A DNA stretch of 32,000 nt from NCBI RefSeq assembly GCF_000619845.1, contig NZ_JHUX01000003.1, forward strand, positions 400,064-432,063, written 5' to 3'. The stretch comes from Alkanindiges illinoisensis DSM 15370. Its GTDB lineage: Bacteria > Pseudomonadota > Gammaproteobacteria > Pseudomonadales > Moraxellaceae. Under the pieces are notes generated by a model. That model was not told where the DNA came from. It ran no database searches and saw nothing but the letters and a program-made list of their open reading frames with translations. Both the position numbers and the translations under genes were made by a program. This document shows, one piece after another, positions 2,487 to 24,783 of this stretch; the first letter of the stretch is position 1, and each line of letters begins with the position of its first letter.

Positions 2487-2615
2487 ACAATTGATATTAA
2501 GATAAATAATAAATGAGCATTACCAATTTTACTTTAGTAATTTTTGGATTATTTCTGCGGATACTTAAGACCGAAAACGCACTTTGACTGCAATAAATCT
2601 CTAAAAGCATACTCG

Positions 2616-2644
2616 TTGCTATTATGTAGTTATTGCTATAGAAT
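2616..2644 (+). promoter_or_regulatory. Sigma70-like promoter of tetR with an embedded quasi-palindromic operator
   Basis: TTGCTA (2616-2621), 17 bp, TAGAAT (2639-2644). The spacer contains TGTAGTTATTGCTATA (2625-2640), which shares the TGTAG[C/T]TAT half-site with the palindrome at 3274-3289. Confidence 0.4.
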
Positions 2645-2675
2645 GGCATCATTGAATATTTATGGATGTAGTGTT

Positions 2676-3257
2676 ATGGCTGGCCGGCCCCGTCAGTTCG
2701 ATATTGAAAAAGCCACTGAGACTGCGCTGCATCTGTTTATCGAAAAAGGTTACGAAGGCGCATCATTTGCCGAGCTGGTCAAGGCAATGGGCATCAGTCC
2801 ACCCAGCTTTTACGCAGCCTTTGGAAGTAAGGAAGCACTGTTTCGCCGTGTACTGGAACGCTATGTAGTAAGCGCCAGAGCTGCCATGCGTGAAGCAGTG
2901 GCACAGCCTACCGCGCGTGAAGTCGTTAGGCACTTGCTGACTGCTCTAGCGACGGCCGCCACCAGCCACCCTACAGCACGTGGATGCCTATTGGTACAAA
3001 GTGCACTTGTCTCAAGCGATAATTCTGCGGATGTACGGGACGATTTGCGTCTGGAGCGTGAAGTAACGACTGCTGCACTAGCAGCCCGCTTTAGGGAAGC
3101 TGAACAGCGTGGCGACAAAACCTTACCAGGAAACCCGAATGCAATGGCACGACTGACAAGCATGATCCTTAGCGGTATTGCTACTCAGGCAGCCAGTGGT
3201 ATCGAATTTGAAGCATTGATGGGTGCAATCAATGCCTATGTTGACCAGTTCAGCTAA
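2676..3257 (+). CDS. TetR/AcrR-family transcriptional regulator
   Basis: The N-terminal HTH segment is RPRQFDIEKATETALHLFIEKGYEGASFAELVKAMGISPPSFYAAFGSKEALF. I chose the ATG at 2676 (MAGRPRQF). The listed ORF start at 2544 adds a Cys/Tyr-rich extension that is not protein-like and overlaps the predicted promoter. Confidence 0.85.
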   Translation: MAGRPRQFDIEKATETALHLFIEKGYEGASFAELVKAMGISPPSFYAAFGSKEALFRRVLERYVVSARAAMREAVAQPTAREVVRHLLTALATAATSHPTARGCLLVQSALVSSDNSADVRDDLRLEREVTTAALAARFREAEQRGDKTLPGNPNAMARLTSMILSGIATQAASGIEFEALMGAINAYVDQFS

Positions 3258-3270
3258 TTTTTTTAATCAA

Positions 3271-3292
3271 TTTTGTAGCTATAACTACAAAA
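3271..3292. promoter_or_regulatory. Palindromic operator candidate between tetR and mdaB
   Basis: TTTTGTAGCTATAACTACAAAA. The core TGTAGCTATAACTACA (3274-3289) is self-complementary at 14 of 16 positions. It lies 41 bp upstream of the mdaB start. Confidence 0.4.
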
Positions 3293-3332
3293 AACTGCCG
3301 AATACCCAAATATCTACTCATGGAGTAACACA

Positions 3333-3914
3333 GTGAAAAAAGTTCTTATTATCAACGCACACCTACCTTATTCATACTCACCGGGACAACTCAACGCGAC
3401 ATTGGTTGAACGGGCAGAAGCATACTTTCGCGGTAAAGGCTATGAAGTGGAAAAAACCATTGTCGCAGAAGGCTATGATGTTGCTATCGAAATCGAAAAA
3501 ATCAGGTCGGCAGATGTGGTCTTCCTTCAAATGCCTTTAAACTGGATGGGCATGCCCTGGACATTTAAGAAATATACCGACGAGGTGTGGAGTGCAGGAA
3601 TGTTTGGTATCTTGTCTAATACCGATGGCCGCAGTTCAGCGGCTCCCAAGGACAATTACGGCATGGGTGGCCTGCTGAAGGGGCGTTACATGCTGTCGGT
3701 AACTGCAAATGCGCCAGCTGAAGCCTTTAATGATCCTGCTCAAGCCTATTTTGCGGGACGAAGCGAAGATGATCTGACCTGGCCCATTGACCTGAACTTT
3801 AAATGGATTGGGCTTGAGAAAGTGCCATCGTTTTGGGCCTATGATGTCATGAAGAATCCTCAAATTGAGAATGACTTGGTGCGGTTTGATGCGCACCTGT
3901 CGACTCACTTTTAA
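3333..3914 (+). CDS. mdaB: NADPH:quinone oxidoreductase MdaB (flavodoxin-like fold)
   Basis: It is 193 aa, the same length as E. coli MdaB, and collinear with it as I recall the sequence (ILIIN...GQLN.TL...ADVV..QMP..WMG.PW..KKY.D.V...YML). The start is GTG, preceded by GGAG. Confidence 0.8.
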   Translation: MKKVLIINAHLPYSYSPGQLNATLVERAEAYFRGKGYEVEKTIVAEGYDVAIEIEKIRSADVVFLQMPLNWMGMPWTFKKYTDEVWSAGMFGILSNTDGRSSAAPKDNYGMGGLLKGRYMLSVTANAPAEAFNDPAQAYFAGRSEDDLTWPIDLNFKWIGLEKVPSFWAYDVMKNPQIENDLVRFDAHLSTHF

Positions 3915-4792: not shown

Positions 4793-5845
4793 TTACTTTG
4801 TCCCGTTCGGAGTATTAAAGGCTTTCAATGGCACTGGCATGTGGAGAGCCAGTTGTGCATCCTTAACCACATCAAGGCGCAATACTTTATTTGCGCCCAG
4901 TTCATCCAGTAAGCGGCTTAGTGGGCCACCATTTCGTACCAGTTTCACATTTCTGGGGAAAAGCTGTTGCCCAAATGACAGCGTGTTAGACTGCACTGAG
5001 GCCTGGTTCCACACGCCATCAATTTTGTGAATCATGGTTTTGGTTTCCAGATGCGATTGGGGTTTAACCTGTTTAATCTGGGGTAGTGGGGCAGTCAGGC
5101 TTAAATCCGTTTTGCCATTGGTGTCTAAAACACTGGCTTTGACTTGTGTCCCGATATTGACATCAATATTGGTGAGCCATTTGGGAAGCTGATAGCCATA
5201 GACACCACGGACTCGTGCAATTTCGGTATCGACTGGCAAGGCCAGCACGTGCCCGTAAAAATGACGATTACGCATGGCACCGAATAGTTCGGTTGCATTT
5301 AATCCTTTTGCATCAGGCTTGCGAATCACCACAGCTACCGAGACTTCATCGTACGGATCGGCATCAGCGACGGTATAGGAATAAAAGGTTAGTGAAACCA
5401 GTCCATATCCTGGAAAGGCCTGCAATGGTTCAAGCGGCGCCGGTAATTTTTCCCGTAGACGTGATACTGGGGCTAACATCAATAGCTGTACATTGCTGGT
5501 ACGATAATAAAAGTTTGGTGACCAGACTGGTCCAACCCGACTATTCACCAGTTTTTTTGGAATGCTCCGGAAAAAGTCAATATTTCCTGCGGCTGGGTCT
5601 TTGGCCACTTCATCCAGATTAGGGTTCATACGGAAACGGTCGTAATAGCCTCCTTTAGGCACTTTAACTTTCTGATTCCCGTATTCAATTTCGATAAATT
5701 GTTGGGGTGTACTGCTCATTGCTAGCGGTACTGAAGGATTGGCTTTAACGGCCTCTGCTGAATCAGTTGCATGCGCATGGGTAGCCATGAAAACAACCAT
5801 TGCTGTAGCTGACATCGAGTGCGGAAATTTCCAACGATTAAACAT
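4793..5845 (-). CDS. Acetoacetate-decarboxylase-like (ADC/beta-cone fold) family protein, paralog 1, with an N-terminal signal-peptide-like extension
   Basis: The segment ARVRGVYGYQLPKW resembles the ADC-family GRE..G.PK catalytic-lysine motif. YYRTSNVQLLMLAPVSRLREKLPAPLEP parallels the C. acetobutylicum ADC segment YRTDMDALRKVVPEPLE. The N-terminus is MFNRWKFPHSMSATAMVVFMATHAHA/TDS. An alternative internal start at 5719 (MSSTPQQ) would remove the signal peptide. Confidence 0.55.
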   Translation of the reverse strand: MFNRWKFPHSMSATAMVVFMATHAHATDSAEAVKANPSVPLAMSSTPQQFIEIEYGNQKVKVPKGGYYDRFRMNPNLDEVAKDPAAGNIDFFRSIPKKLVNSRVGPVWSPNFYYRTSNVQLLMLAPVSRLREKLPAPLEPLQAFPGYGLVSLTFYSYTVADADPYDEVSVAVVIRKPDAKGLNATELFGAMRNRHFYGHVLALPVDTEIARVRGVYGYQLPKWLTNIDVNIGTQVKASVLDTNGKTDLSLTAPLPQIKQVKPQSHLETKTMIHKIDGVWNQASVQSNTLSFGQQLFPRNVKLVRNGGPLSRLLDELGANKVLRLDVVKDAQLALHMPVPLKAFNTPNGTK

Positions 5846-5875
5846 TTCGGGCTTCTCATCATTTGTCCTGATGAA

Positions 5876-5906
5876 ATGCTAGGTTTAAAGCATGGTTGAA
5901 GGTCAA
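5876..5906 (-). promoter_or_regulatory. MerR-type promoter with 19-bp spacer (site S3), driving ADC-like paralog 1
   Basis: The minus strand reads TTGACC-TTCAACCATGCTTTAAACC-TAGCAT. The -10 ends 30 nt upstream of the ATG at 5845. Confidence 0.5.
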
Positions 5907-6206
5907 GCGTTTTAATAGAATGGCTGGAGTCTATGCTGTTATCAAATAATATTATTTAATTACAAAGACATAATTTGGGTTGAGGGGCATGGAGAGCCTA
6001 GGAAAAATTTATTTTTATGATGGATATACTTAAATATTACTTAAAACGATTCATTTATTCATGGGCAAGATTGTTTAGTGTAGGGCATAAGCAAATACCA
6101 GTCGAGTGAAGATTAGATGAATAAAGATCAGTGCATGTAAAAGACAACCTGTTTTTCCGCATCATGCGAGAAAGATGGGAAAAGCAGGCATGCTTTGCTG
6201 CAAATG

Positions 6207-7193
6207 CTATTGTTTTACAATTAGAGCCAGTTTACCGACATGCTGGCCTTGATCAAGCAGCTCATGGGCCTGCCGCGCTTCGCTTAACTCAAAGCTTTTA
6301 TACAGCAAGGGTTTTAACTGGCCTTGCGCAATGAGTGGCCATACTTTGTCCTGCAAGGCTGCCATGACTTCTGCCTTGGCTTCTGGGGTTTGCGAGCGTA
6401 ATGTTGCACCCAGGTGAGTTAAGCGTTTTGCCAGTAATGGAAAAAAATTAACCTGTTCGGCCAGTCCCTGCATCACACCTACTTGCAGGATGGTGCCATT
6501 CATCGCAGCCACCTCGTAATTACGCTGGATATAATTACCGGCAATAATATCCAGGACAAAATCCACGCCACGACCTTGGGTGTGCTGCTTCACCTGTTCG
6601 ACAAAATCATCTTTACGATAATTAATTGCCACATCAGCGCCAAGGGCAACGCTGGCTTTTTGGTGTTCGGCGCTCGAAACGGTGGTAAAAATCTGGGTTG
6701 CGCCAAATGCCCGGGTGAGCATGGTGGCGGTGGTGCCAATGCCAGACGTGCCACCATGAATCAGGATAGAGCTGCCCGGGCGCCATTTGGCATGCTGGAA
6801 CAAGTGTGACCAGACCGTCATGAAGGTTTCCAGCAAGATTCCACCTTCCACCAGTGTGAGGCCTTGCGGAATAAACAGCACGTTGTCCTGATGGGCAACC
6901 ACATATTCAGCATAACCACCGCCCTGAACCAGGGCACACACTTCATCGCCTGCCTTAAAGCTGCTGACCCGTTTTCCCACCTGTTTGACAATACCAGAAA
7001 CTTCCAGCCCCGGAATATCAGTCACTCCGGGAGGTGGATTATATAAGCCCTTACGCTGCATGACATCCGGGCCATTGATACCCGCTGCCACCACCTCAAT
7101 CAGTACACCATTATCGGTCAGTGCTGGCATGGGACGTTCACTAAGCTCAATGACTTCCGGCCCACCAGCGCCATTAAAAATAATACTTCGCAT
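6207..7193 (-). CDS. NAD(P)H:quinone oxidoreductase, zinc-independent MDR family (Qor/PIG3-like)
   Basis: It has an MDR N-terminal GroES-like domain (GVLIEVVAAGINGPDVMQRKGLYNPPPG..DIPGLEVSGIV). The Rossmann motif is IHGGTSGIGTTA. AGGAGA precedes the ATG. Confidence 0.9.
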   Translation of the reverse strand: MRSIIFNGAGGPEVIELSERPMPALTDNGVLIEVVAAGINGPDVMQRKGLYNPPPGVTDIPGLEVSGIVKQVGKRVSSFKAGDEVCALVQGGGYAEYVVAHQDNVLFIPQGLTLVEGGILLETFMTVWSHLFQHAKWRPGSSILIHGGTSGIGTTATMLTRAFGATQIFTTVSSAEHQKASVALGADVAINYRKDDFVEQVKQHTQGRGVDFVLDIIAGNYIQRNYEVAAMNGTILQVGVMQGLAEQVNFFPLLAKRLTHLGATLRSQTPEAKAEVMAALQDKVWPLIAQGQLKPLLYKSFELSEARQAHELLDQGQHVGKLALIVKQ

Positions 7194-7237
7194 TGATCAT
7201 CTCCTGATCCCCCGCTTGCCTATTTAGTTTTAGACAT

Positions 7238-7278
7238 TAAAAATAAACACAGGATTTGCGGGAGGAGCTAAATCCTGC
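7238..7278 (-). terminator. Rho-independent terminator after the aldehyde dehydrogenase gene
   Basis: The minus strand reads GCAGGATTT-(12 nt loop)-AAATCCTGT followed by GTTTATTTTTAA. Confidence 0.5.
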
Positions 7279-7292
7279 CTTTGCGGGTATGG

Positions 7293-8744
7293 TTAAAGCT
7301 TGGATGAGCTGGTTTTCTTACCTAAAGTAACCTGAAGGGCCAGTTCCATAAAACGGCCAAACGGGGCCTGTAGCAGGCTTGGCAGATTCCAGCGCCCCTG
7401 GTCAAAGACACCTTTGGCATGACTCATGGAGCGGAAGCCTTCAATACCGTGATAGGCCCCCATACCACTGGCACCAACGCCACCAAAGGGCAGGTCATCC
7501 TGTGCCACATGAATAATGGTGTTATTGAGACCCACATTGCCCGAGGTAGTCCGTTTAAGCACTTTCTGGCAGTCTGCATCTTTTTCGCCAAAATAATACA
7601 GGGCCAGTGGACGTGGGCGATGATTGATATAGTCAATCACCTCATCAATACTGCGATAGGTGCGAACAGGCAGGATTGGGCCAAAAATTTCTTCCTGCAT
7701 GATGGCATCATCATCATGAGCGCCGACCACCAGTGTGGGTGCCAGCGTACGTACGCGGTTAGCCGCAGACTCCGGTTTTACCCCAACTTCAATCACGCGT
7801 GCACCCTTTTGACGGGCATCGTCCAGCAGATTTTGTAAGCGGTCATAATGGCGGTCATTCACAATGGAAGTGTAATCATTGCTATGAGGCCCATCAGGAT
7901 AAAAGCGGCTAACCGTGGCATGATATTGCTGGATAAAATCCTCAACATCATCTTCATGCACCAGCGCATAATCGGGTGCAACACAAGTTTGCCCACCATT
8001 TGACAGCTTGCCATAGGCAATACTGCGTATGGTTCGTTCATTGACCTGACCACGGGCAACGATCACTGGACTCTTACCACCTAGTTCAAGGGTGAGTGGC
8101 ACCAGATTGTCACTGGCGGCTTGCATCACCTTGCGGCCAACTGGTGTGCTGCCTGTAAACAACAAATGATCAAACGGCAGGCGACTAAACGCCGCACCAA
8201 CTTCCGGCCCACCCAGCACCACGGCTACTTCTTCCACGGGAAAGGTGGCGGCCAGCATGCGCTCAAGTACTTCACTGGTACGGGGCGTGAGCTCAGAAGG
8301 TTTAAGCATAGCCCGATTACCGGCGGCTAGTGCCGTTGCCAGCGGAATCAGGGTTAGGGAAACCGGATAGTTCCATGGTGCCATCACACCAACAATACCT
8401 TTGGGCTGGTATTCCACATGGGCTTGCGCGCTGCGGTAGAACAAACTGACATGGCGGCGCTCGAGTTTCATAAAGCGGCGCAGGTGCCGGGATAAATAAT
8501 CAATGGACTGTACAACACCCACCAGTTCCATGACATCGGTTTCATGATAGGAGCGGTGGCCAAAGTCTGCACTGATGGCTTGTTGCAGCTCACTACGATA
8601 TTCAAGGACGGCTGCACGCAATTTGGCAAGCTGTGCCTTGCGTTGTTTCAGGTTTGCAGGCTCTGTGTTTAGAAAAGCCATGCGCTGACGGGCGAGAATG
8701 TCAGCCGCAGTGCTAGTACTATTCAATTCTTGTGCATTTGTCAT
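7293..8744 (-). CDS. NAD(P)+-dependent aldehyde dehydrogenase, class-3 / coniferyl-aldehyde dehydrogenase-like
   Basis: ALDH signatures are present: LTLELGGKSP (catalytic Glu), GQTCVAPDY (catalytic Cys), FTGST.VG and EEIFGPILPV. The length of 483 aa and the N-terminal coiled segment are typical of the CalB-like subgroup. Confidence 0.9.
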   Translation of the reverse strand: MTNAQELNSTSTAADILARQRMAFLNTEPANLKQRKAQLAKLRAAVLEYRSELQQAISADFGHRSYHETDVMELVGVVQSIDYLSRHLRRFMKLERRHVSLFYRSAQAHVEYQPKGIVGVMAPWNYPVSLTLIPLATALAAGNRAMLKPSELTPRTSEVLERMLAATFPVEEVAVVLGGPEVGAAFSRLPFDHLLFTGSTPVGRKVMQAASDNLVPLTLELGGKSPVIVARGQVNERTIRSIAYGKLSNGGQTCVAPDYALVHEDDVEDFIQQYHATVSRFYPDGPHSNDYTSIVNDRHYDRLQNLLDDARQKGARVIEVGVKPESAANRVRTLAPTLVVGAHDDDAIMQEEIFGPILPVRTYRSIDEVIDYINHRPRPLALYYFGEKDADCQKVLKRTTSGNVGLNNTIIHVAQDDLPFGGVGASGMGAYHGIEGFRSMSHAKGVFDQGRWNLPSLLQAPFGRFMELALQVTLGKKTSSSKL

Positions 8745-8784
8745 TTGAGATTTCCCGGTGTCATCGCAGTGAAAAGCCGTCTAT

Positions 8785-9690
8785 TCAAAGCCCTTTATTT
8801 AAAGGCGTAGGCATATTCAGTACCAGTTGAGCATCCTTAACAACATCTAGACGCAGGATTTTTGCAGCACCTAGTCCATCCAGTAACTGGCTTAACGGGC
8901 CGCCATGCCGTACCAGTTTTACCTTTTTGGGGAAAAGCTGCTGGGCAAATGACAATGTATTGGACTGTACCGATGTGCTGTGCCATACCCCATCCACCTG
9001 ATGAATCATGGTCTTGGTTTCCAGATGCGATTGTGGTTTGACCTGTTGTAGTTTAGGTGTGGGCAGGGTTAAGGTCAGGTCAGTGTTGCCATCAGTATTT
9101 AAGATACTGGCTTGCACTTCTGAGCCAATATCAAGGCTAATATCGGTGAGCCATTTGGGGAGCTGATAACCATAGACACCGCGTGTCCGGGCAATTTCCG
9201 TGTTAACCGGTAAAGCCAGCACATGGGCAAAGAAGCTGCGACGGCGCATGGCATCCAGCAACTCCAGCGCATGAGATCCTGTAGCACCCGGCTGGCGAAT
9301 CACGACGGCTACCGATACCTCATCGTAGGGGTCGTTGTCGCATACTGCGTAGGAAAAGAAAGTTAAAGCCACCAGACCAAATCCCGGAAAAGCTTGCAGC
9401 GGTTCAAGCGGGCTGGGCAAGGCAGCGCGTAGCTTGCTCATCGGCGCGAGCATGAGTAACTGGACATTGCTGCTACGGTAGTAAAAATTCGGTGCCCAGA
9501 CTGGACCAACCCGTGAATTCACCCGCTGCTTGGGGATTCTGCGAAAAAAATCCACATTACCAGCAGCAGGATCCTTGGCAACCTCATCCAGATTGGGATG
9601 CATATGAAAACGGTCATAGTAGCCCCCTTTAGGAACTTCTACGGTTTGGCTACCAAATTTAACTTCAACATGCTGTTGTGCTGTATTCAT
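8785..9690 (-). CDS. Acetoacetate-decarboxylase-like family protein, paralog 2 (no signal peptide)
   Basis: It is collinear with the 4793-5845 product. My hand alignment gives 219 identical of 296 aligned positions. The ARTRGVYGYQLPKW motif is the same. It starts at MNTAQQHVEV, which aligns with residue ~43 of paralog 1. Confidence 0.55.
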   Translation of the reverse strand: MNTAQQHVEVKFGSQTVEVPKGGYYDRFHMHPNLDEVAKDPAAGNVDFFRRIPKQRVNSRVGPVWAPNFYYRSSNVQLLMLAPMSKLRAALPSPLEPLQAFPGFGLVALTFFSYAVCDNDPYDEVSVAVVIRQPGATGSHALELLDAMRRRSFFAHVLALPVNTEIARTRGVYGYQLPKWLTDISLDIGSEVQASILNTDGNTDLTLTLPTPKLQQVKPQSHLETKTMIHQVDGVWHSTSVQSNTLSFAQQLFPKKVKLVRHGGPLSQLLDGLGAAKILRLDVVKDAQLVLNMPTPLNKGL

Positions 9691-9764
9691 GATGGTTGAC
9701 CTTTATTGTTGACGGACTGGCGAAACAGCCTTGACGACAAGCGAATTCATTGCTGTTAAAACAT

Positions 9765-9795
9765 ACTATAAGTTTTAAGTTCACTTTAAGGTCAA
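9765..9795 (-). promoter_or_regulatory. MerR-type promoter with 19-bp spacer (site S2), driving ADC-like paralog 2 and ALDH
   Basis: The minus strand reads TTGACC-TTAAAGTGAACTTAAAACT-TATAGT. The dyad is TTAAAGT-GA-ACTTAAA. Confidence 0.55.
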
Positions 9796-9879
9796 GCGAA
9801 AAAATGCAGTTTTTCTCATAAATGTAGAAAGTGTTTGTAGTGCTTCAGCGTTTTTTATTAGTCATAAATTTAAAAGCCA

Positions 9880-9910
9880 TTGACCTTAAGGTGAGCTTTG
9901 GGTCTACAGT
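9880..9910 (+). promoter_or_regulatory. MerR-type promoter with 19-bp spacer (site S1), driving the alpha/beta hydrolase gene
   Basis: The plus strand reads TTGACC-TTAAGGTGAGCTTTGGGTC-TACAGT. It lies back-to-back with S2 in the same divergent intergenic region. Confidence 0.5.
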
Positions 9911-10029
9911 CAGGATGCGATATTACAGCTTGCTTTGTTGATAATAGCCCGGCATCACTCTTTATCGGTCTGGGTTATCGACAACAGGTGTTCTTATTGG
10001 AAACTGTTCTATGACACAGGAGAATAAGC

Positions 10030-10860
10030 ATGGCATACGTCACAACAAAAGACGGTGTTGAGATTTTTTATAAAGACTGGGGCCCGCGGGATGCCCAGGT
10101 GATTTTCTTTCATCATGGCTGGCCCTTGAGTTCTGATGACTGGGATGCCCAGATGATGTTTTTTTTAGATCAGGGTTTTCGGGTAGTGGCGCATGACCGC
10201 CGTGGGCATGGCCGTTCCAGTCAGGTCTGGGATGGTCACGACATGGATCATTATGCCGATGATGTAGCAGCCGTGGTTAACCAGCTAGGCGTGCAGGGTG
10301 CAATCCATGTGGGGCACTCAACCGGCGGTGGCGAAGTGGTGCGCTACCTGACGCGGCATAGAGATGACCCTGTGCCCAAGGCGGTATTAATTAGTGCTGT
10401 ACCACCCTTAATGGTCAAGACCGACAGCAATCCGGGCGGCTTACCCAAAAAGGTATTTGATGACTTTCAGGCCAAGCTGGCCGCCAATCGGGCAGAATTT
10501 TATAATGAGATTCCTTCTGGCCCTTTTTATAACTATAACCGCCCCGGTGTGGAAGCTTCTGAACCAGTGATCAGGAACTGGTGGCGGCAGGGTATGATGG
10601 GTGGTGCCAAGGCGCATTATGATGGCATTGTGGCTTTCTCCCAGACTGATTTTACCGAAGACCTCAAGCAAATCACCATTCCTGTGCTGGTCATGCATGG
10701 CGATGATGATCAGGTGGTGCCTTATGAAAATTCTGGCCCATTGTCCGCCAAGCTGCTGCAAAACGGCACGTTAAAGACCTACAAGGATTTTCCACACGGG
10801 ATGCCCACAACGCATGCCGAAACCATCAATGCCGATCTTCTGGCATTTATTAAAAGTTAA
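10030..10860 (+). CDS. Alpha/beta hydrolase, non-heme (cofactor-free) haloperoxidase / perhydrolase / arylesterase family
   Basis: The N-terminus is typical of the family: TKDGVEIFYKDWGP...VIFFHHGWPLSSDDWD.QM.F....GFRV.AHDRRGHGRS. It has the nucleophile elbow GHSTGG. An Asp (HGDDDQVVP) and a His (FPHGMP) are positioned to complete the triad. Confidence 0.85.
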   Translation: MAYVTTKDGVEIFYKDWGPRDAQVIFFHHGWPLSSDDWDAQMMFFLDQGFRVVAHDRRGHGRSSQVWDGHDMDHYADDVAAVVNQLGVQGAIHVGHSTGGGEVVRYLTRHRDDPVPKAVLISAVPPLMVKTDSNPGGLPKKVFDDFQAKLAANRAEFYNEIPSGPFYNYNRPGVEASEPVIRNWWRQGMMGGAKAHYDGIVAFSQTDFTEDLKQITIPVLVMHGDDDQVVPYENSGPLSAKLLQNGTLKTYKDFPHGMPTTHAETINADLLAFIKS

Positions 10861-10901
10861 GTGTTGTGGCCGCATAAAAGCCACCACTGCTAATAAACGC
10901 A

Positions 10902-10926
10902 TGGGCTATTCATAGAGGATAGCCCA
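10902..10926. terminator. Hairpin between convergent genes (hydrolase + / merR -)
   Basis: TGGGCTAT (10902-10909) pairs with ATAGCCCA (10919-10926), with a 9-nt loop. On the minus strand it is followed by TGCGTTTATT. Confidence 0.35.
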
Positions 10927-10929
10927 ACC

Positions 10930-11340
10930 TCAATTTGCATCAGGAAAATAGACCTTAAACAGGCGTTGCGCATTTTCTTCACAGCTAATTTCATCAGGCT
11001 TGTCATTAATGGCCTGAATCAGCGTTATCAGATTTTGTTTATTCTCAGCCAGTTTTTTTTCCAGTGCTTCAATTTCACTGACTTTCTGGTTCAGGCTCTC
11101 AATCAGTTTGTCATGGTTCCAAATCGTCATATTGCCTGGCAGCAGGGATTTGATTTCAGCTAAGGAAAAGCCCGCCTGTTGCGCCTGTTTGATCAGTAAT
11201 AATTGTTGAAGGTCAGTATCGCTATACTCGCGATACCCATTGGCTTTACGTTTGGCTTTCGGCAACAGTTTAATTTGTTCATAGTAACGGATGGTTGGGG
11301 TATTCAATCCACTTAAGCGGGAGAGTTCACTAATATTCAT
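10930..11340 (-). CDS. MerR-family transcriptional regulator (short effector region, single Cys, no metal or Fe-S cysteine cluster)
   Basis: The N-terminal wHTH is MNISELSRLSGLNTPTIRYYEQIKLLP...NGYREYSDTDLQQLLLIKQAQQAGFSLAEIKSLL, followed by a coiled-coil dimerisation helix. Start ambiguity: the ATG at 11340 gives the canonical N-terminus. The ATG at 11361 (MSIGQTE...) would be nearly leaderless relative to promoter S5. Confidence 0.85.
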   Translation of the reverse strand: MNISELSRLSGLNTPTIRYYEQIKLLPKAKRKANGYREYSDTDLQQLLLIKQAQQAGFSLAEIKSLLPGNMTIWNHDKLIESLNQKVSEIEALEKKLAENKQNLITLIQAINDKPDEISCEENAQRLFKVYFPDAN

Positions 11341-11350
11341 CTCGGTTTGT

Positions 11351-11404
11351 CCTATTGACATTCAAGCTTACTTTAGGCCTAGAGTGCACTTGAATGTCAA
11401 TAGG
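11351..11404. promoter_or_regulatory. Mirror-symmetric control region: two overlapping divergent 19-bp-spacer promoters (S4 + strand, S5 - strand) inside a perfect 16-bp inverted repeat
   Basis: CCTATTGACATTCAAG (11351-11366) pairs with CTTGAATGTCAATAGG (11389-11404). S4 (+) is TTGACA(11355-60)-TTCAAGCTTACTTTAGGCC-TAGAGT(11380-85). S5 (-) is TTGACA(11400-11395)-TTCAAGTGCACTCTAGGCC-TAAAGT(11375-11370). Confidence 0.55.
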
Positions 11405-11505
11405 GATAAGCCCGCTTTTGCGGTAATTTTTCTGGGTAGCAGGCCACAAAATTATGGGTGTTACTACAACTGCAAACCCAGCTTACCTTTGTGTTCAAAA
11501 AACAG

Positions 11506-11536
11506 TTGACATTCAAGTTAGCTTTAACATTAAAGT
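11506..11536 (+). promoter_or_regulatory. MerR-type promoter with 19-bp spacer (site S6), proximal promoter of the DJ-1/epimerase pair
   Basis: TTGACA-TTCAAGTTAGCTTTAACAT-TAAAGT. The dyad is TTCAAGT-TA-GCTTTAA. It lies 85 nt upstream of the ATG at 11621. Confidence 0.55.
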
Positions 11537-11620
11537 CTTTGCCATGGCACAAACGATGCAACGTTTGATGAACATGTTCCACCATAGTACCTATGACAAT
11601 AATCATTGAGGAATCCAGAA

Positions 11621-12427
11621 ATGTTCAAGACTCGAAATGCTTCACACGGTTTGCTCGCGATGTTTGCCTTAATGTTTAGTATGAACTCGACGCAAGCTGT
11701 TGAACCTACTCCTGTAACTACTCAATCCGCTGCTATGGGAAAAATTTTGGTGGTAATGACCAATCATTCGGCTTATCCCACCCGTCAGGACAAGACAGGC
11801 TTATGGTTTACTGAACTAACAGAATTCTACGATGTCATGCAGGCAGCAGGGTTGCAAATGGACTTTACCAGCCCTGAAGGCGGCGAGATTCCCCTGGATG
11901 ATCGTAGTATGAAACCTATTTATCTCAATGCTGATGCACGTAAACATCTGGCCGATCCGGCATTTATGGCACGTCTTAAAACAACCTTACCAGCCCGTTC
12001 AATTGATCCATCGCAATATAAGGCCATTTATTATACGGGTGGTCATGGCACCATGTGGGATTTTCCCAATAACAAAGATCTAAAGAAAATCAGTGAACAG
12101 ATCTATCGCCAGGGCGGTATGGTGACAGCAGTGTGTCATGGTGTTGCCGGATTACTGCCGCTACAGGACGATCAGGGTCAGCCACTGATTAGTGGACGTA
12201 CAGTCACCGGTTTTTCCAATACTGAGGAGGTACTTGCAGGCATTAAATCACAGGTTCCTTTCTTATTGCAGGATGAGTTAAGCAAACGTGGTGCGCACTA
12301 CAAGAAAGCCCTAATTCCATTCACCTCGTATGCAGTCACTGATGACCGGGTTATTACAGGTCAGAATCCGCAGTCAGGCGGTGAGGTTGGTAAAGCGTTG
12401 CTTAAGCGTCTAAATGCTGGGAAGTAA
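11621..12427 (+). CDS. DJ-1/PfpI superfamily protein, Hsp31-like (glyoxalase III/deglycase-type), predicted exported
   Basis: YTGGHGTMWDF...VTAVCHGVAGLL matches the Hsp31 nucleophile-elbow region as I recall it (GGHG...CHGP). A strong SD (GAGGAA) precedes the ATG at 11621. The N-terminus MFKTRNASHGLLAMFALMFSMNSTQA/VEP looks like a Sec signal peptide. Confidence 0.8.
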   Translation: MFKTRNASHGLLAMFALMFSMNSTQAVEPTPVTTQSAAMGKILVVMTNHSAYPTRQDKTGLWFTELTEFYDVMQAAGLQMDFTSPEGGEIPLDDRSMKPIYLNADARKHLADPAFMARLKTTLPARSIDPSQYKAIYYTGGHGTMWDFPNNKDLKKISEQIYRQGGMVTAVCHGVAGLLPLQDDQGQPLISGRTVTGFSNTEEVLAGIKSQVPFLLQDELSKRGAHYKKALIPFTSYAVTDDRVITGQNPQSGGEVGKALLKRLNAGK

Positions 12428-12475
12428 TTTATATGCTGGGAAATTATCTGTAATTGATTAGTGAGGAGAAGCGTC

Positions 12476-13402
12476 ATGCAAACGATATTAGGTGCGAATG
12501 GCCAGATTGGTCGAGAAGTGGCAATCTGCTTAAAGGAAAGTTTTACTGACGATATTCGTCTGGTCAGCAGAAAACCGCAAAAGGTGAATGACACGGATCA
12601 ACTGTTTAGCGCAGATTTACTTGATCCCCAGCAGGCGCTTGATGCTGTTGAAGGTTCGGACATCGTTTACATGACGGTCGGACTGCCGATGGATACCGAG
12701 CTATGGGTGAAGCAGTGGCCAATTCTCATGCACAATGTGATTGAGGCCTGTATCACCCATAGCGCCAAGCTGGTGTATTTTGATAACACCTATATGTATC
12801 CGCAAACTGCAACGCCGCAAACCGAAACAACTCCATTTTTACCCAACGGGGCTAAGGGTAAGGTTCGTGCCGACATTGTCAATGAGCTGCTTGAAGCGAT
12901 GGCGCAAAAACGGATACAGGCAGTAATCTGCCGGGCACCAGAATTTTATGGGCCGGGTATCACGCAAAGTATTACCAACAGTACCATTATCGACAATATC
13001 AAGGCCGGGAAAAAACCCAAGGTGTTTTTACGCGATGATACCTTACGTAGCCTGATTTATACCCCGGATGCCAGTCGTGCGATGGCGCTGCTGGGTAATA
13101 CGCCTGATGCGTATGGACAGACCTGGCATCTACCCGCTGATGATCAGCGTCTGACCTATCGTCAGTTTATTGAGTTGGCAGCACAGATCTTTAAGGTTGA
13201 TCCAAGTTATACAGTGGTTAAAAACTGGCAGCTCAAGCTGGGTGGGCTTTTTAATAAAACGATTCGTGACGCAGCCGAGTTATTGCCACGCTACAAAGTC
13301 GACAATATCTTTGTTTCAGATAAATTTAAGCAACGGTTTCCAGAGTTTAAAGTCACAACTTTTAGAGAAGGGCTAACCGCCATTCGGGATGAAAAGGGTT
13401 AA
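12476..13402 (+). CDS. NAD(P)-binding epimerase/dehydratase-family protein (atypical/extended SDR)
   Basis: The N-terminal glycine motif is ILGANGQIGREV, and the overall pattern is that of an extended SDR. The SD GAGGAG lies 7 nt before the ATG at 12476. A gap of only 48 nt from the DJ-1 gene suggests co-transcription. Confidence 0.8.
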   Translation: MQTILGANGQIGREVAICLKESFTDDIRLVSRKPQKVNDTDQLFSADLLDPQQALDAVEGSDIVYMTVGLPMDTELWVKQWPILMHNVIEACITHSAKLVYFDNTYMYPQTATPQTETTPFLPNGAKGKVRADIVNELLEAMAQKRIQAVICRAPEFYGPGITQSITNSTIIDNIKAGKKPKVFLRDDTLRSLIYTPDASRAMALLGNTPDAYGQTWHLPADDQRLTYRQFIELAAQIFKVDPSYTVVKNWQLKLGGLFNKTIRDAAELLPRYKVDNIFVSDKFKQRFPEFKVTTFREGLTAIRDEKG

Positions 13403-13517
13403 GCAGCAGCGTTATGAGTACGACGTTGAGAAGGACCATGACTTGCCTTGGATTAAATACTTGCAGAGGGTAGGAGCACATGAAAATATTATATGGTCCT
13501 GAAAGTCGTGCTCAAAG

Positions 13518-16404: not shown

Positions 16405-16770
16405 TCATAAGGCCGGCTGATGGTTCAGCGCAAACTGCCGGCGCGCTTCTTCAATCTGGCCATGATGCGCTTCGACCCAAAGCCAGACCCCACAGAAAGC
16501 GCTGCCCAAACTCTTACCAAGTGGGGTTAGGCTGTACTCGACACAGGGTGGTACAACCGGATGTACTACCCGACTGACCAGGCCATCACTTTCCATTTGA
16601 CGCAAAGTTTTAGTCAGCATTTTCTGACTAATTCCCTTAACTTGTTTACCAAGCTGGGTGAACCTCAGGATATGCGCCTCTTCTAATGCTTCTAGAATCA
16701 GCATTGTCCATTTATCGGCAACGCGGCCAATAATCTCATGCACCAGTTTTTCTACCGCCGGGTTAGTCAT
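16405..16770 (-). CDS. HxlR-family (MarR-like wHTH) transcriptional regulator
   Basis: VADKWTMLILEALEEAHILRFTQLGKQVKGISQKMLTKTLRQMESDGLVSRVVHPVVPPCVEYSLTPLGKSL is the HxlR signature region. The ATG at 16770 is preceded by AGGAGA. The upstream part of the listed ORF is therefore probably untranslated. Confidence 0.85.
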   Translation of the reverse strand: MTNPAVEKLVHEIIGRVADKWTMLILEALEEAHILRFTQLGKQVKGISQKMLTKTLRQMESDGLVSRVVHPVVPPCVEYSLTPLGKSLGSAFCGVWLWVEAHHGQIEEARRQFALNHQPAL

Positions 16771-16847
16771 GGCTGGTGTCTCCTGCCGGATTTGTAGCGT
16801 CTGTTTATCATCTTGCACTTGAATGGTTATCACTCTCTTTTAGGGAG

Positions 16848-16870
16848 GTATGGCACTTTTGGGTGCCTAC
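16848..16870. promoter_or_regulatory. Imperfect inverted repeat in the hxlR/SDR divergent region (operator candidate)
   Basis: GTATGGCAC-TTTTGG-GTGCCTAC. The arms are complementary except for one extra T. Confidence 0.25.
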
Positions 16871-16927
16871 TTTCTAATCTATTGTGAGTATTTTATGATA
16901 GAAGTACAATCTGAGCGGAGCGAATAA

Positions 16928-17689
16928 ATGAAACTAACTGGCAATACGATTTTAATTACGGGTGGTGGTTCGGGCATTGGCAAGGCTCTAGCAAAAGCTT
17001 TTTATGATAAGGGTAACAAGGTCATTATTGCAGGACGTCAGGCTGACAAACTCGAAGCGGTTGCATCAGCCTTTCCCGGTATGACCTTCATGACGGTTGA
17101 TATGACCAGTCTGGCGTCAATTACCGCATTCTCTGAAAAAATCATTGCTGAACATCCTGATTTAAATGTGATTATCAACAACGCTGGTATTATGATTCCA
17201 GAAGATTTGCTCACAGCACCTGCCAATCTGGAAATTGCCGAACGCACAGTTTTAACCAATCTGTTGGGGCCAATTCGCCTGACCTCAAGCTTGTTACCAC
17301 ATTTGATGCACCAGAAGTCTTCAACCATTATGATGGTGACTTCAGGACTGGCCTTTGTTCCTCTGGTAATGACACCAACTTATAATGCAACCAAGGCGGC
17401 ACTTCATTCGTACAGTATTGCACTGCGTCAGCAGCTCAAAGACACATCGACTGAAGTGATTGAAATTATCCCGCCCTATGTGCAAACAGAGCTGATGGGT
17501 ACCCAGCAAGCCAGTGATCCTCATGCCATGCCACTTGCGGATTTTATTGATGAGGTGATGCTGCTGCTTGAAAAAAATAATGGTACGGCAGAGATTGTAG
17601 TAGAACGTTGCAAACCCCTTCGCTATGCGGCTGAAACCCATACCTTTGGGCAGACATTTACTATGCTTAATCAACAACATTCACAGTAG
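16928..17689 (+). CDS. Short-chain dehydrogenase/reductase (classical SDR)
   Basis: It has TGGGSGIGKALA (TGxxxGxG), NNAG and the catalytic YNATK. It is divergent from the HxlR regulator, which is a common pairing. Confidence 0.9.
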   Translation: MKLTGNTILITGGGSGIGKALAKAFYDKGNKVIIAGRQADKLEAVASAFPGMTFMTVDMTSLASITAFSEKIIAEHPDLNVIINNAGIMIPEDLLTAPANLEIAERTVLTNLLGPIRLTSSLLPHLMHQKSSTIMMVTSGLAFVPLVMTPTYNATKAALHSYSIALRQQLKDTSTEVIEIIPPYVQTELMGTQQASDPHAMPLADFIDEVMLLLEKNNGTAEIVVERCKPLRYAAETHTFGQTFTMLNQQHSQ

Positions 17690-18157: not shown

Positions 18158-19597
18158 CTATTGAGCAGTAGATGTCGTACTTGGCGACGAGCCGCCAAGT
18201 ACCACAAAAAGTTGAGCAGTGTCTGAAAAACGCTGGCTCTGCGCTTCAATTAAACCCAGTTGTGCGCGGCTTAGCTGCCGGGCCGCATCTTCAATTTGCA
18301 GCAAACCGGTATTGCCAGCCTGATAACTTTTACGTGAAAGTTCAAGGGAAGCCCTTGCTGTACTTACGGCTTGCTGCTGGGCTGCTTCAGCGTCGGCATC
18401 ATGCTGTAGTGCTTGCAGCACATCCGCAACCTGTCCAAATGAATTGAGAATTACCTGTTTATACTGTGCCAGTGTGGCCTGATAGCCATGTTCGGCAGCC
18501 TGTTTTTGGGCAGAAAGCCTGCCTCCGTCGTAAAGTGGGGCAGTCAGGCCAGCAGCCAATGCCCAAGCCGTATTAACACTTTTAAATAAGCCACTGGGTG
18601 TCAGTGCTTCCTGTAATAAGTTGGCCGACAGGTTCACTCGTGGATAAAGATTGGCAGTTGCCACGCCCACTGCCGCACTGGCAGCCTGTAAATTAGCTTC
18701 TGCGGCCAAAATATCCGGCCGTTGCCGCACCAGTTCGGATGGCAAACTCACGGGTAATTCCTGTGGCAGCGTGAAGTCATTCAGGCTAAATACAGGAACT
18801 GTCGAGTTGGCCGGTGTACTGCCCGCCAGTACAGCCAGCGCATGTTGTGCCAGACTTAACTGCTGGTGTAACGGTGGAAGCAGCGCCAAATCAGCATCCA
18901 GCTGGCTTTGGGCTGTCAGTACTTCAACTTTTGTCCCCGAACCACCCTTAAACGCGGCTTCAACCAGCTTTAGGGTATTTTTATCTTCGGCAATAATGGT
19001 TTCAGTAACCTTGATTCTGGCCCGAGTGGTGGCAATGGACAATGCTTGTGCCACCACATTACCGGTGAGTTGTAGATAAGCAGCCTGCAACTGGTATTGC
19101 TGATAGGCAGCCATGGCCCGTTGCTGCTCAATACTGCGTTTATTACCGCCAAACAGATCCAGTGACCAGCTTAAGGCAGGTCCTATTTCATAGTAGGTAA
19201 AGGGCGGGATGGTAAAATCAGCCGGGCCAAACAGTGCTGCGCCATATTTTTGTCGGCCTGCTGTGCCGGTGAGCGACAATTGTGGCTTGAAGGCACCCTG
19301 TTCTGCCTGTACCAGCGCATTGGCTTGCAGGACGCGCTGCTGGGCTGCAACCAGATCCTGATTATTGGCAATGGCCTGCCTAATGAGGCTGTTAAGTGAA
19401 CTGGAGGCAAACAGGTTCCACCACTGGGCACTCAATTGCTTTCCCAAAACCACATGCTGGCCAGTAGCCTGTAACGGGATTTCATTGGGACTGGTATAGG
19501 TTGCAGGCACAGCTAATACAGGTGCCTGATAATCAGGACTGACCGCACAGCCAGTAAGCATTGCTAACCCAGCAATAAATGAACAGGACTTTTTCAT
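18158..19597 (-). CDS. Efflux outer-membrane factor lipoprotein, NodT/OprM family
   Basis: It has a lipobox (MKKSCSFIAGLAMLTG/C). Two OEP repeats are present, with a typical A/Q/L-rich coiled composition. It starts 2 nt after the emrB-like stop. Confidence 0.9.
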   Translation of the reverse strand: MKKSCSFIAGLAMLTGCAVSPDYQAPVLAVPATYTSPNEIPLQATGQHVVLGKQLSAQWWNLFASSSLNSLIRQAIANNQDLVAAQQRVLQANALVQAEQGAFKPQLSLTGTAGRQKYGAALFGPADFTIPPFTYYEIGPALSWSLDLFGGNKRSIEQQRAMAAYQQYQLQAAYLQLTGNVVAQALSIATTRARIKVTETIIAEDKNTLKLVEAAFKGGSGTKVEVLTAQSQLDADLALLPPLHQQLSLAQHALAVLAGSTPANSTVPVFSLNDFTLPQELPVSLPSELVRQRPDILAAEANLQAASAAVGVATANLYPRVNLSANLLQEALTPSGLFKSVNTAWALAAGLTAPLYDGGRLSAQKQAAEHGYQATLAQYKQVILNSFGQVADVLQALQHDADAEAAQQQAVSTARASLELSRKSYQAGNTGLLQIEDAARQLSRAQLGLIEAQSQRFSDTAQLFVVLGGSSPSTTSTAQ

Positions 19598-19599
19598 GG

Positions 19600-21207: not shown

Positions 21208-22267
21208 GAGTCAAACCTTGCAGGCGGCTATAATGGGTGTCAATTTTCACATTAACACTAAGACCGGCATGTAATGGAATCCTAGGGTCTGGATCATCAA
21301 TGCTAATGCGCACCGGCAGCCGCTGAACCACTTTTACCCAGTTTCCTGTGGCATTTTCCGGCGGTAGCAGGGCAAAGCTTGAGCCGGTACCCGGACTAAA
21401 ACTCATGACCCGGCCATGAAAGACATGTCCCGGATAGGTATCGACTTCAAAGGTAGCTTGCTGATCAGGCAGCATGTGGGTCAGTTCGGTTTCCTTGAAA
21501 TTGGCCTGTACCCAGATATTTTTTGACATCACTGCAAATAGCGGAGTTGCCGCAGTAATGTAGTTGCCCACTTGTAACTGGTCGACCTTGGCCACAATTC
21601 CGTCAACAGGTGCTTTGACCACAGCATAGGATAAATTCAGCAAGGCACGGTCAAGCTCGGCCTGGGCCTGCTGTACGGATGGATGAGCATTTACAGTAAT
21701 ATCAGGATTGTTATTCAGGTTGGCCCGGGCATTGGCCAGTTCCTGATTGCTGGCATTGACCTGCTGTTCAGCATTTACAAACGCATGATGCGCCTGTTCC
21801 AGCTGCACTTGTGAGGAAATCCCTTGCGCCGCCAGATTTTTCTGGCGCTCAAATTCGGTCTTTAAATAAGCAACCGTTTGCTGGGCTGCCTGTACATCGC
21901 TTTGACGTTGACGGTAAGTGGCCTTCAGGGCACCAATTTGCATTTTCGCATTCGCCAGTTGGGCTCGGGCACTGTCTACAGCAATTTTTAACTCACGGTC
22001 ATCCAGCATAAATAAGGTGTCACCCTGATGAACCTGCTGGTTTTCATGAACCAGAATCCGGGTGACCCGTCCGCCGAGATTGCTGCTGATATCAGTGCGG
22101 GCTGATTGAATATAGGCATCATCCGTCGTCATGTAGCGGCCACCCTGAATAAACAGCACCGCGACTATCAGTAAAATCAGTACAGGGCCAGCAATCAGCA
22201 GCAGGCGTCGATGTCGCGTCAGCCAGTTTGGTTGGGAAGTGGTTGGATCTGTTACTGCCCCGGCCAT
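21200..22267 (-). CDS. emrA: HlyD/EmrA-family membrane fusion (periplasmic adaptor) protein
   Basis: It has a single N-terminal TM (LLLIAGPVLILLIVAVLFI), a coiled-coil hairpin and barrel-sandwich motifs. The stop overlaps the emrB start by 8 nt (ATGGCTGA). The start is ATG 22267, or GTG 22285 as an alternative. Confidence 0.88.
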   Translation of the reverse strand: MAGAVTDPTTSQPNWLTRHRRLLLIAGPVLILLIVAVLFIQGGRYMTTDDAYIQSARTDISSNLGGRVTRILVHENQQVHQGDTLFMLDDRELKIAVDSARAQLANAKMQIGALKATYRQRQSDVQAAQQTVAYLKTEFERQKNLAAQGISSQVQLEQAHHAFVNAEQQVNASNQELANARANLNNNPDITVNAHPSVQQAQAELDRALLNLSYAVVKAPVDGIVAKVDQLQVGNYITAATPLFAVMSKNIWVQANFKETELTHMLPDQQATFEVDTYPGHVFHGRVMSFSPGTGSSFALLPPENATGNWVKVVQRLPVRISIDDPDPRIPLHAGLSVNVKIDTHYSRLQGLTHG

Positions 22268-22371
22268 AAATACTCTCAAAGTCACCCATAAAAAGTGCGG
22301 GCATTATGCGACGGGAGGCTAATAATGTTAATATCCTATAATATGAATAAACTATTCGATGGAAGCGAATA

Positions 22372-24715: not shown

Positions 24716-24736
24716 CGTAAAAATTCCTAAAATAAA

Positions 24737-24757: not shown

Positions 24758-24783
24758 TAACAATAATTGATAGGCAAAACAGT

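Follow-up and report, generated by a model that had tools for sequence, protein, structure and literature searches.

Six MerR-type promoter-operators in Alkanindiges illinoisensis point to a probable electrophile-response regulon with relatives in Acinetobacter and Pseudomonas

A 32,000-nucleotide stretch of the Alkanindiges illinoisensis DSM 15370 genome (contig NZ_JHUX01000003.1, positions 400,064 to 432,063 of the forward strand; hereafter the window, numbered from its first letter) carries six copies of one promoter-like element, S1 to S6, around a gene for a 136-aa MerR-family regulator. Two questions arise: are these copies the operators of that regulator, and to which signal would the genes behind them respond? 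The initial annotation of this DNA had proposed an undescribed carbonyl/electrophile regulon, in which each promoter has a -35 element TTGACC or TTGACA, a 19-bp spacer carrying a dyad, and a -10 element. Our analysis leads to a closely related answer. On the basis of sequence and comparison, the promoter-operator design, its link to the regulator and the set of targets can be considered established. That S1-S6 are promoters controlled by this regulator appears highly probable, and the whole picture of a MerR-controlled electrophile regulon seems likely. The six sites are as follows.

5876..5906, minus strand: S3, promoter-operator TTGACC/19 bp/TAGCAT, 32.6 bits; open reading frame (ORF) of ADC-like protein 1 located 30 nt downstream
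9765..9795, minus strand: S2, promoter-operator TTGACC/19 bp/TATAGT, 35.1 bits; ORF of ADC-like protein 2 located 74 nt downstream
9880..9910, plus strand: S1, promoter-operator TTGACC/19 bp/TACAGT, 35.1 bits; alpha/beta hydrolase ORF located 119 nt downstream
11355..11385, plus strand: S4, promoter-operator divergent from merR and reading toward S6 and the DJ-1 operon, exact match to the site pattern, 39.5 bits
11370..11400, minus strand: S5, promoter-operator of merR, exact match, 38.5 bits; its -10 ends 29 nt before the ATG at 11340
11506..11536, plus strand: S6, promoter-operator TTGACA/19 bp/TAAAGT, exact match, 35.7 bits; ATG at 11622, 85 nt downstream

The window was searched with the pattern TTGACMTTNAA-N5-CT-N7-TA-N3-T, using 100 dinucleotide-preserving shuffles of the 32-kb sequence as the null. 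Five sites (S2-S6) match the pattern exactly and S1 matches it with one mismatch. The shuffles yielded no exact match, and a mean of 0.09 matches when up to two mismatches were accepted. With a log-odds matrix derived from the six sites, S1-S6 score 32.6-39.5 bits while the rest of the 32 kb, on both strands, remains below 14 bits. Reading of the sequence from 5700 to 11700 places all six sites at the coordinates and on the strands first given. All of them are intergenic, with the start of a downstream gene at 8-120 nt. As had been described and as can be read directly in each of the 31-bp sites, the spacer is 19 bp long in all six and its positions 1, 2, 4, 11 and 12 are invariant. A scan of the region 5700-13500 for canonical sigma70 promoters (16-18-bp spacer) found none in the intergenic regions preceding the target genes. 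Two additional copies proposed in the initial annotation had to be abandoned. The degenerate seventh copy at 28252 stays under 14 bits in the matrix scan, the gap between its half-sites is one base short and the DUF326 gene is 200 nt off. The supposed partial copy TTGACCTTTA at 9696 is a -35-like word with neither dyad nor -10 and is not a site.

The dyad does lie within the spacer, although its description as a 7-2-7 arrangement is less exact: it is a 16-bp palindrome, TTAAAGTT|AACTTTAA, occupying spacer positions 1-16 with its centre between positions 8 and 9. Drawn from 126 distinct sites, the consensus reads TTGAC(C/A)-TTAAAGTTAACTTTAAnCT-TAnnnT. Information is near maximal at the -35, across the 16-bp palindrome and at the T, A and T of the -10. 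It almost vanishes at the central bases of the -10 and at position 17 of the spacer, whose positions 8 and 9 are also variable. Conservation is thus limited to functional positions and therefore reflects selection on function, not the shared ancestry of a repeat. We also observed a conserved C at position 18 of the spacer, beyond the palindrome and next to the -10, in 116 of the 126 sites (for example at 11378 and 9903 in the window); it could be a contact for the promoter or for the regulator.

Is this design kept where the regulator is kept? A scan of one genome per species provided 50 orthologous loci from Alkanindiges and Acinetobacter (L001-L050), whose MerR orthologues share 58-81% identity with the window protein. 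The window protein is itself 100% identical to one from Alkanindiges illinoisensis. Orthologues of ~70% identity are annotated in many Acinetobacter species, including A. baumannii, and the A. nosocomialis, A. pittii and A. seifertii loci belong to the orthologous set. Nearly every orthologue has the same element directly upstream, oriented away from merR, and the matrix scan of L001-L050 detected 196 sites of at least 25 bits, with up to six per locus. Since a matrix scan presupposes the spacing, the window and the 50 related loci were searched again for the dyad alone (TTNAAG-N4-CTTNAA, at most one mismatch). A TTGAC directly precedes 201 dyads. In 200 of these, TANNNT follows at exactly 19 bp, and no dyad has a TANNNT solely at some other distance. 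Most of these dyads (176/201) lie outside ORFs of at least 100 aa, which occupy 81% of the DNA. The 19-bp spacing is thus preserved at the orthologous loci as in the window and, with the palindrome nested inside the spacer, it substantiates the MerR-type promoter design first deduced from six sites.

The genes found directly downstream of the sites in L001-L050 encode DJ-1 proteins (69), ADC-like proteins (46), alpha/beta hydrolases (29), aldehyde dehydrogenases (2) and MerR itself (4). A further 57 downstream genes are without a homologue in the window. Those inspected belong to two families, a ~412-aa NADH:flavin oxidoreductase of the Old Yellow Enzyme (OYE) family (PF00724, 193.7 bits) and a ~420-aa saccharopine-dehydrogenase-like protein. 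Gene order is reshuffled across species, each unit having its own promoter. Site-driven DJ-1 proteins occur in two forms, one of ~230 aa that is cytoplasmic and one of ~270 aa with a signal peptide, and the ADC-like proteins likewise come in two forms. The coexistence of exported and cytoplasmic forms of both families in the Acinetobacter regulon suggests, as far as can be read from sequence, a detoxification operating in two compartments.

More distant relatives give the same association. A profile search of 1.8 billion representatives retrieved full-length relatives of the regulator with ~35-46% identity and, through one of them, homologues annotated in Pseudomonas putida, Stutzerimonas stutzeri and P. 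citronellolis. In P. putida and Stutzerimonas (~45% identity), the neighbours of the regulator gene are epimerase-family, alpha/beta hydrolase, aldehyde dehydrogenase, DJ-1 and OYE genes, and they are preceded by the same promoter with a 19-bp spacer, for example TTGACATTAAAGTTAGCTTTAATCTTAAGGT. Metagenome contigs were then scanned for exact matches to the pattern, using the motif alone, which gave at least 120 contigs and at least 126 sites. Among the matches listed (126 sites), 65 precede an OYE gene, 13 merR, 9 a hydrolase, 4 an ADC-like, 3 an epimerase-family, 2 a DJ-1 and 1 an aldehyde dehydrogenase gene, and 20 precede other genes; again among the matches listed, 70 of the 120 stretches found by the motif encode a relative of the regulator, with 32-70% identity. 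The clustering of sites at regulator orthologues in Alkanindiges, Acinetobacter, Pseudomonas and Stutzerimonas, together with these contigs, supports the link between the sites and the local regulator. Reading of the sequences indicates that 9 of the 20 'other' metagenome genes in this set encode a ~212-aa putative 1-Cys peroxiredoxin, PADYTPVCTTELG (L106, L118, L121, L126, L128, L136, L148, L163 and L179), and that one SDR-like protein and one MDR-type reductase-like protein (the latter in L147, with an alkenal-reductase-like appearance) also lie behind metagenome sites. From these arrangements, the core unit appears to be the regulator plus an OYE, of which the Acinetobacter and Alkanindiges clusters would be expanded versions. 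Loci L051-L080, recovered through the peptide RYYEQIKL, turned out to encode ordinary CueR/HmrR copper regulators with a C...C loop; they are uninformative on the operator and were set aside.

In the window itself, the sites are followed by these genes.

4793..5845, minus strand: ADC-like protein 1, 350 aa, predicted target of S3; PF06314 at 24.4 bits, under the cut-off of 29.8
6207..7193, minus strand: 328-aa NAD(P)H quinone oxidoreductase of the PIG3 family; TIGR02824 gives 430.8 bits, its cut-off being 296.8
7293..8744, minus strand: 483-aa aldehyde dehydrogenase, lying second in the S2 operon with a 40-bp gap to ADC-like protein 2; PF00171 at 293.8 bits
8785..9690, minus strand: ADC-like protein 2, 301 aa, lacking a signal peptide, predicted target of S2; PF06314 at 26.6 bits, under the cut-off
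10030..10860, plus strand: alpha/beta hydrolase of the perhydrolase / non-haem haloperoxidase / arylesterase type, 276 aa, predicted target of S1; PF00561
10930..11340, minus strand: merR, 136-aa MerR-family regulator, predicted target of S5; PF13411, PF00376 and PF09278
11622..12427, plus strand: DJ-1/PfpI protein of the Hsp31/glyoxalase III type, predicted target of S6; PF01965
12461..13402, plus strand: NAD-dependent epimerase/dehydratase-family (SDR-type) protein, following the DJ-1 gene with a 33-bp gap; PF01370 and PF13460
13518..14582, plus strand: AraC-family regulator; PF12625 and PF12833

The translation of ADC-like protein 1 shows MFNRWKFPHSMSATAMVVFMATHAHA and then a body homologous to ADC-like protein 2; its first ~26 residues resemble a signal peptide, and the protein is predicted to be exported. 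Sites also lie upstream of its orthologues in Acinetobacter, and before those of ADC-like protein 2. A sequence search of the PDB returned no relatives of the ADC-like proteins. Orthologues of the aldehyde dehydrogenase have a site of their own in L009 and L013, and in Stutzerimonas (L083) a site precedes an Aldedh gene. The quinone oxidoreductase gene, which starts 99 bp after the aldehyde dehydrogenase gene, is probably the last gene of the S2 operon: in L013, L020 and L043 it is the conserved end gene after either an aldehyde dehydrogenase or a saccharopine-dehydrogenase-like gene. The best PDB matches of the alpha/beta hydrolase are esterase 1ZOI (E = 4e-160) and the non-haem chloroperoxidase 4DGQ (6e-151), and its orthologues stand directly behind sites at the 29 Acinetobacter positions counted above and once in P. 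putida (L082). The DJ-1/PfpI protein matches ThiJ/PfpI 4P5P (3e-50), the glutathione-independent glyoxalase III 4LRU (2e-36) and yeast Hsp31; its N-terminus, MFKTRNASHGLLAMFALMFSMNSTQA, resembles a signal peptide, so that the protein is predicted to be periplasmic. The epimerase-family gene probably shares an operon with it, and homologues of this gene have their own site in P. putida L082 and in the three metagenome loci mentioned above. The AraC-family gene may conceivably be a distal member of the regulon. The carbonyl/electrophile theme of the initial annotation is supported by the glyoxalase III-type DJ-1, aldehyde dehydrogenase, PIG3-type quinone oxidoreductase and perhydrolase-type hydrolase, and by the OYE and 1-Cys peroxiredoxin of the relatives.

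The merR promoter region deserves a closer description. S4 and S5 are interlocked in a 46-bp near-palindrome (11355-11400), with dyad centres 18 bp apart, such that the right arm of each operator (ACTNTA; ACTTTA / ACTCTA) is the -10 of the other promoter (TAAAGT / TAGAGT) on the opposite strand. A merR start at 11361 was considered and rejected: the orthologues all begin with MNISELS, corresponding to the ATG at 11340, and 11361 would fall on the predicted transcription start. In most Acinetobacter species, merR seems to have an ordinary promoter, TTGCTT-17-TAAAGT, which is situated 45-30 nt before the gene and overlaps the divergent operator. Judging from these layouts, autoregulation appears to differ by genus, the Acinetobacter one predicting autorepression and S5 of Alkanindiges predicting positive feedback. 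The S4-equivalent divergent promoter lies upstream of a small DJ-1 gene in Acinetobacter; in the sister species A. hydrocarboniclasticus (L001) the S4-type promoter faces a 90%-identical orthologue of the AraC-family gene, 178 nt away. The window segment 11403-13547, comprising S6 and the DJ-1 and epimerase-family genes, is missing from A. hydrocarboniclasticus and represents an insertion or a deletion relative to it. A small CCGC-TTTT-GCGG hairpin followed by a T-rich run was also seen directly after S4, in the 11386-11505 interval.

Which kind of MerR protein would act on these sites? Family searches agree with the initial annotation that the window holds a single MerR-family gene. Its product has the MerR winged helix-turn-helix (PF13411, 72.3 bits; PF00376, 53.7 bits; both above cut-off) and a coiled-coil dimerisation helix (PF09278, 39.8 bits), which the AlphaFold2 model (pLDDT 93.4) represents as a single helix, alpha5 (76-112), followed by a seven-residue loop (113-119) and alpha6 (120-131). 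The nearest solved proteins, by sequence and by fold, are CueR and CadR (phmmer E = 2e-13 to CueR; Foldseek TM ~0.72-0.78). All NCBIfam equivalogs nevertheless score below their cut-offs: CueR 80.8/147.4, MerR 68.9/150.9, ZntR 61.3/168, CadR/PbrR 57/151.5, NmlR (NF041849) 57/175 and SoxR (TIGR01950) 29.4/116.9. The sole cysteine, Cys120, is the first residue of alpha6, and the proposal that the regulator lacks the cysteine sets of SoxR and of the metal sensors is accordingly correct. Cys120 is present in 100 of 105 aligned relatives and is the only cysteine in 71 of them; at the hinge and the start of alpha5, Trp74 (61/105) and His76 (68/105) are the commonest residues. A manual alignment on the KV(S/A)EIE motif, with a one-residue offset, places Cys120 on the distal copper ligand of CueR, also Cys120. 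The proximal ligand, CueR Cys112, is replaced by Ile111/Asn112, the search alignment pairing Ile111 with it. Helix alpha3 (41-55) contains no cysteine and position 52 is a Gln. In 20 of the 105 relatives a second cysteine occupies position 52, which we take to be the position of the NmlR/AdhR sensor cysteine; these relatives may be a link or an intermediate between two thiol-based MerR groups.

Taken together, these features lead us to propose the following mechanism. S1-S6 would be sigma70 promoters of the MerR type, with a near-perfect -35 (TTGACC or TTGACA) and a TANNNT -10, in which the 19-bp spacer would be too long for RNA polymerase to engage both elements together. The 16-bp palindrome in the spacer would be the binding site of the 136-aa MerR dimer. 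On the model of CueR, SoxR, BmrR and MerR, a dimer without ligand would keep the promoters off, and the signal-bound dimer would kink and under-twist the dyad, realigning -35 and -10 and turning transcription on. Distortion of DNA at 19-20-bp spacers is documented for the MerR family (PMC9909328, PMC5001606), and activation by this route is inferred here from the family mechanism. S3 would thus drive the exported ADC-like protein; S2 its paralogue lacking a signal peptide, the aldehyde dehydrogenase and probably the quinone oxidoreductase; S1 the hydrolase; S6, with S4 upstream, the exported glyoxalase III-type DJ-1 and the SDR/epimerase-family reductase; and S5 merR. In relatives, an OYE ene-reductase, a saccharopine-dehydrogenase-like reductase, a cytoplasmic DJ-1 and a 1-Cys peroxiredoxin would also be under the regulator. 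Such a regulon would clear 2-oxoaldehydes, alpha,beta-unsaturated carbonyls, quinones and possibly peroxides or peracids, in the cytoplasm and in the periplasm.

These target enzymes, together with the alkenal-reductase-like protein of the relatives, are our reason to see the signal as a reactive electrophile or as damage that such a compound does. On balance, the probable stimulus is a reactive electrophile or an oxidant. Cys120 is the proposed sensor because it is the sole cysteine, almost invariant, and stands at the alpha6 N-terminus in the place of the second copper ligand of CueR. A thiol at the N-terminus of a helix is typically reactive. In CueR-type dimers the loop packs against the hinge of the partner, which fits the conservation of Trp74 and His76, and alkylation or oxidation of Cys120 would be relayed to this hinge in the other subunit. 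We give a covalent sensing role of Cys120 somewhat less than an even chance.

Comparison with characterized systems helps to situate this regulator. With CueR, CadR, ZntR and MerR it shares the winged helix-turn-helix, the long dimerisation helix and, after a short loop, a small C-terminal helix whose first residue is a cysteine; the dyad nested in a 19-bp spacer is likewise of the CueR type. In contrast to CueR-type proteins, it has only the distal loop cysteine, the proximal one (CueR Cys112) being absent, it scores far under every equivalog cut-off, and its predicted regulon consists of carbonyl, quinone and peroxide enzymes, with no metal transporter among the identified targets. The two loop cysteines are common to 'almost all' metal-sensing MerR members (PMC9909328).

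The resemblance to the SoxR box noted initially is real for the core of the operator. The E. coli K-12 soxS promoter, TTTACC-TCAAGTTAACTTGAGGAAT-TATACT, also has a 19-bp spacer, and its operator and the Acinetobacter consensus have in common the core AAGTTAACTT, with seven of nine half-site positions identical. The outer positions of the SoxR box (CCTCAAGTTAACTTGAGG) differ, and the soxS centre is 1 bp further upstream. Both systems would serve a redox or stress response, but the regulator is only 26% identical to E. coli SoxR and, having a single cysteine, lacks the CX2CXCX5C [2Fe-2S] motif. SoxR acts on one secondary regulator, whereas the regulator described here would act directly on many enzyme genes.

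Closest in function are NmlR and AdhR (Neisseria, Haemophilus, Bacillus), MerR-family thiol-based sensors of carbonyls and formaldehyde. These have no C-terminal sensor region, use an alpha3 cysteine (HiNmlR Cys54, AdhR Cys52) and recognize repeats flanking the -35 (PMC5001606); the AdhR regulon includes the DJ-1/PfpI-type protein YraA. Here, in contrast, the cysteine follows the dimerisation helix, the loop and alpha6 are conserved, and the dyad is inside the spacer. Physiological analogues are found in E. coli NemR-NemA-GloA (TetR family) and B. subtilis YodB/HypR (DUF24 family), which also combine a cysteine-based regulator with an OYE and glyoxalase or quinone reductases; their regulators come from other families, and these work by de-repression instead of distorting DNA to activate. 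In a 2021 review (PMC9909328), SoxR and NmlR/AdhR are given as two of the redox-responsive MerR proteins known by then, without mention of any further one. We found no paper on this regulator or operator in the full-text literature, in line with its initial presentation as undescribed; most subscription journals and RegPrecise-type databases were outside this search, and an earlier prediction is possible.

The kinship with CueR raises the possibility of a metal sensor, in which His76, Asp77 and Cys120 would bind a metal across two subunits, as in CueR, ZntR and CadR, and the enzymes would be co-regulated for a metal-linked reason. CueR and CadR are the best fold and sequence matches. The alignment of Cys120 with the distal loop cysteine of CueR would agree with a metal sensor, as would that of His76 and Asp77 with CueR His76 and Ser77, the latter a position that sets metal selectivity (PMC9909328). 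Yet only one of the two loop cysteines is there, the protein stays below the CueR, ZntR, CadR and MerR equivalog cut-offs and, among the matches listed for the ~330 site-associated genes, there is no identified metal efflux pump, chaperone or metal-binding protein, the identified ones being carbonyl, quinone or peroxide enzymes. We therefore judge a metal sensor improbable. A sensor binding a small aromatic or lipid-derived molecule non-covalently, in a pocket formed by Trp74, His76 and alpha6, is somewhat easier to envisage but still unlikely. The genes would then form a catabolic or xenobiotic pathway, of which the esterase, aldehyde dehydrogenase, ADC-like and reductase genes could be steps, and the conserved Trp74, His76, Asn123 and Arg126 could line the pocket. 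Drug-binding MerR proteins are an established class (PMC9909328); the C-terminal region here, however, is ~25 residues long, far below the ligand domains of BmrR and TipA. Modular, reshuffled gene sets with their own promoters and with exported and cytoplasmic paralogues fit parallel detoxifiers better than a pathway, and a lone OYE reductase is the commonest metagenome partner among the matches listed.

Finally, the sites might not be under MerR control at all, being instead a dispersed repeat or constitutive promoters that share ancestry through cassette duplication. The pairs formed by ADC-like proteins 1 and 2 and by the two Acinetobacter DJ-1 genes do suggest cassettes copied with their upstream DNA. 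A copied cassette is hard to reconcile with conservation restricted to the -35, the palindrome and TA...T, when the central bases of the -10 and positions 8, 9 and 17 of the spacer are free to vary, or with the occurrence of the same design before unrelated gene families. The design is moreover kept with regulators of no more than 32-49% identity, in Pseudomonas and in metagenomes, the regulator gene is present in 70 of the 120 motif-only contigs among the matches listed, and a spacer of exactly 19 bp in 200 of 201 cases is unexpected for constitutive promoters. We consider this explanation very improbable, well behind the other two.

Several observations weigh against a MerR-controlled electrophile regulon, or limit its extent. 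S4 lacks a gene to itself, and what it faces, 120 bp downstream, is S6. Between the aldehyde dehydrogenase and quinone oxidoreductase genes (~7228-7262, minus strand) lies a hairpin, CAGGATTT-N12-AAATCCTG, followed by the T-run TGTTTATTTTT, which was not reported by the terminator scan because that scan allows loops of only 3-8 bases; within the S2 operon this hairpin may act as a partial terminator. For the quinone oxidoreductase as a target, the conserved end-of-operon position is the one ground, and the intervening hairpin speaks against it. The ADC-like proteins match Pfam ADC only below threshold and are without a solved relative. Cys120 could be structural, or a metal ligand, and activation rather than plain repression is inferred from promoter geometry alone. 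The search for sites at related loci began with a matrix from the six sites of the window. This is a source of bias in the consensus, which the dyad-only test and the metagenome scan lessen but do not eliminate. For this genome the analysis covers 32 kb, and the literature provided no transcription, binding or induction data for any member of the family.

The surroundings of the regulon contain further small pairs of regulator and effector genes. A TetR regulator and a flavodoxin-like (quinone-reductase-type) protein are encoded at 2544-3914, an HxlR-family regulator divergent from an SDR gene at 16405-17689, and a LysR regulator (22372-23274) divergent from an HlyD-MFS-OEP efflux system (18158-22285); a CsoR/RcnR-like repressor and a cation-diffusion facilitator follow at 24455-25719. 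This region of the window looks like a stress and detoxification neighbourhood.

What would a MerR-controlled electrophile regulon mean for these bacteria? The Acinetobacter calcoaceticus-baumannii complex and Pseudomonas putida both have the regulator together with this type of promoter, which gives the system clinical and biotechnological reach. Relevant stresses for such organisms are methylglyoxal, acrolein and other lipid-peroxidation aldehydes, quinones and hypochlorite products, of host or disinfectant origin. The ADC-like proteins and the exported DJ-1 proteins, both poorly understood, are thereby given a physiological context. With a defined operator, one candidate sensor residue and a compact list of targets, the system is tractable and could supply a natural electrophile-responsive promoter for biosensors. 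The promoter mechanism would be the canonical one of MerR proteins, combined with what appears to be an unreported type of sensor and regulon. More tentatively, we suggest a third kind of redox- or electrophile-sensing MerR protein, of CueR-type descent, which would have lost the proximal cysteine and kept the alpha6 thiol as a covalent sensor, next to the hinge of the partner subunit, and which would be widespread in Pseudomonadales and beyond, directing from many individual promoters with 19-bp spacers a two-compartment defence in which the glyoxalase III-type DJ-1 and the ADC-like enzymes are exported. If this is true, a metal-sensor scaffold has been turned into a thiol-based sensor of electrophiles.

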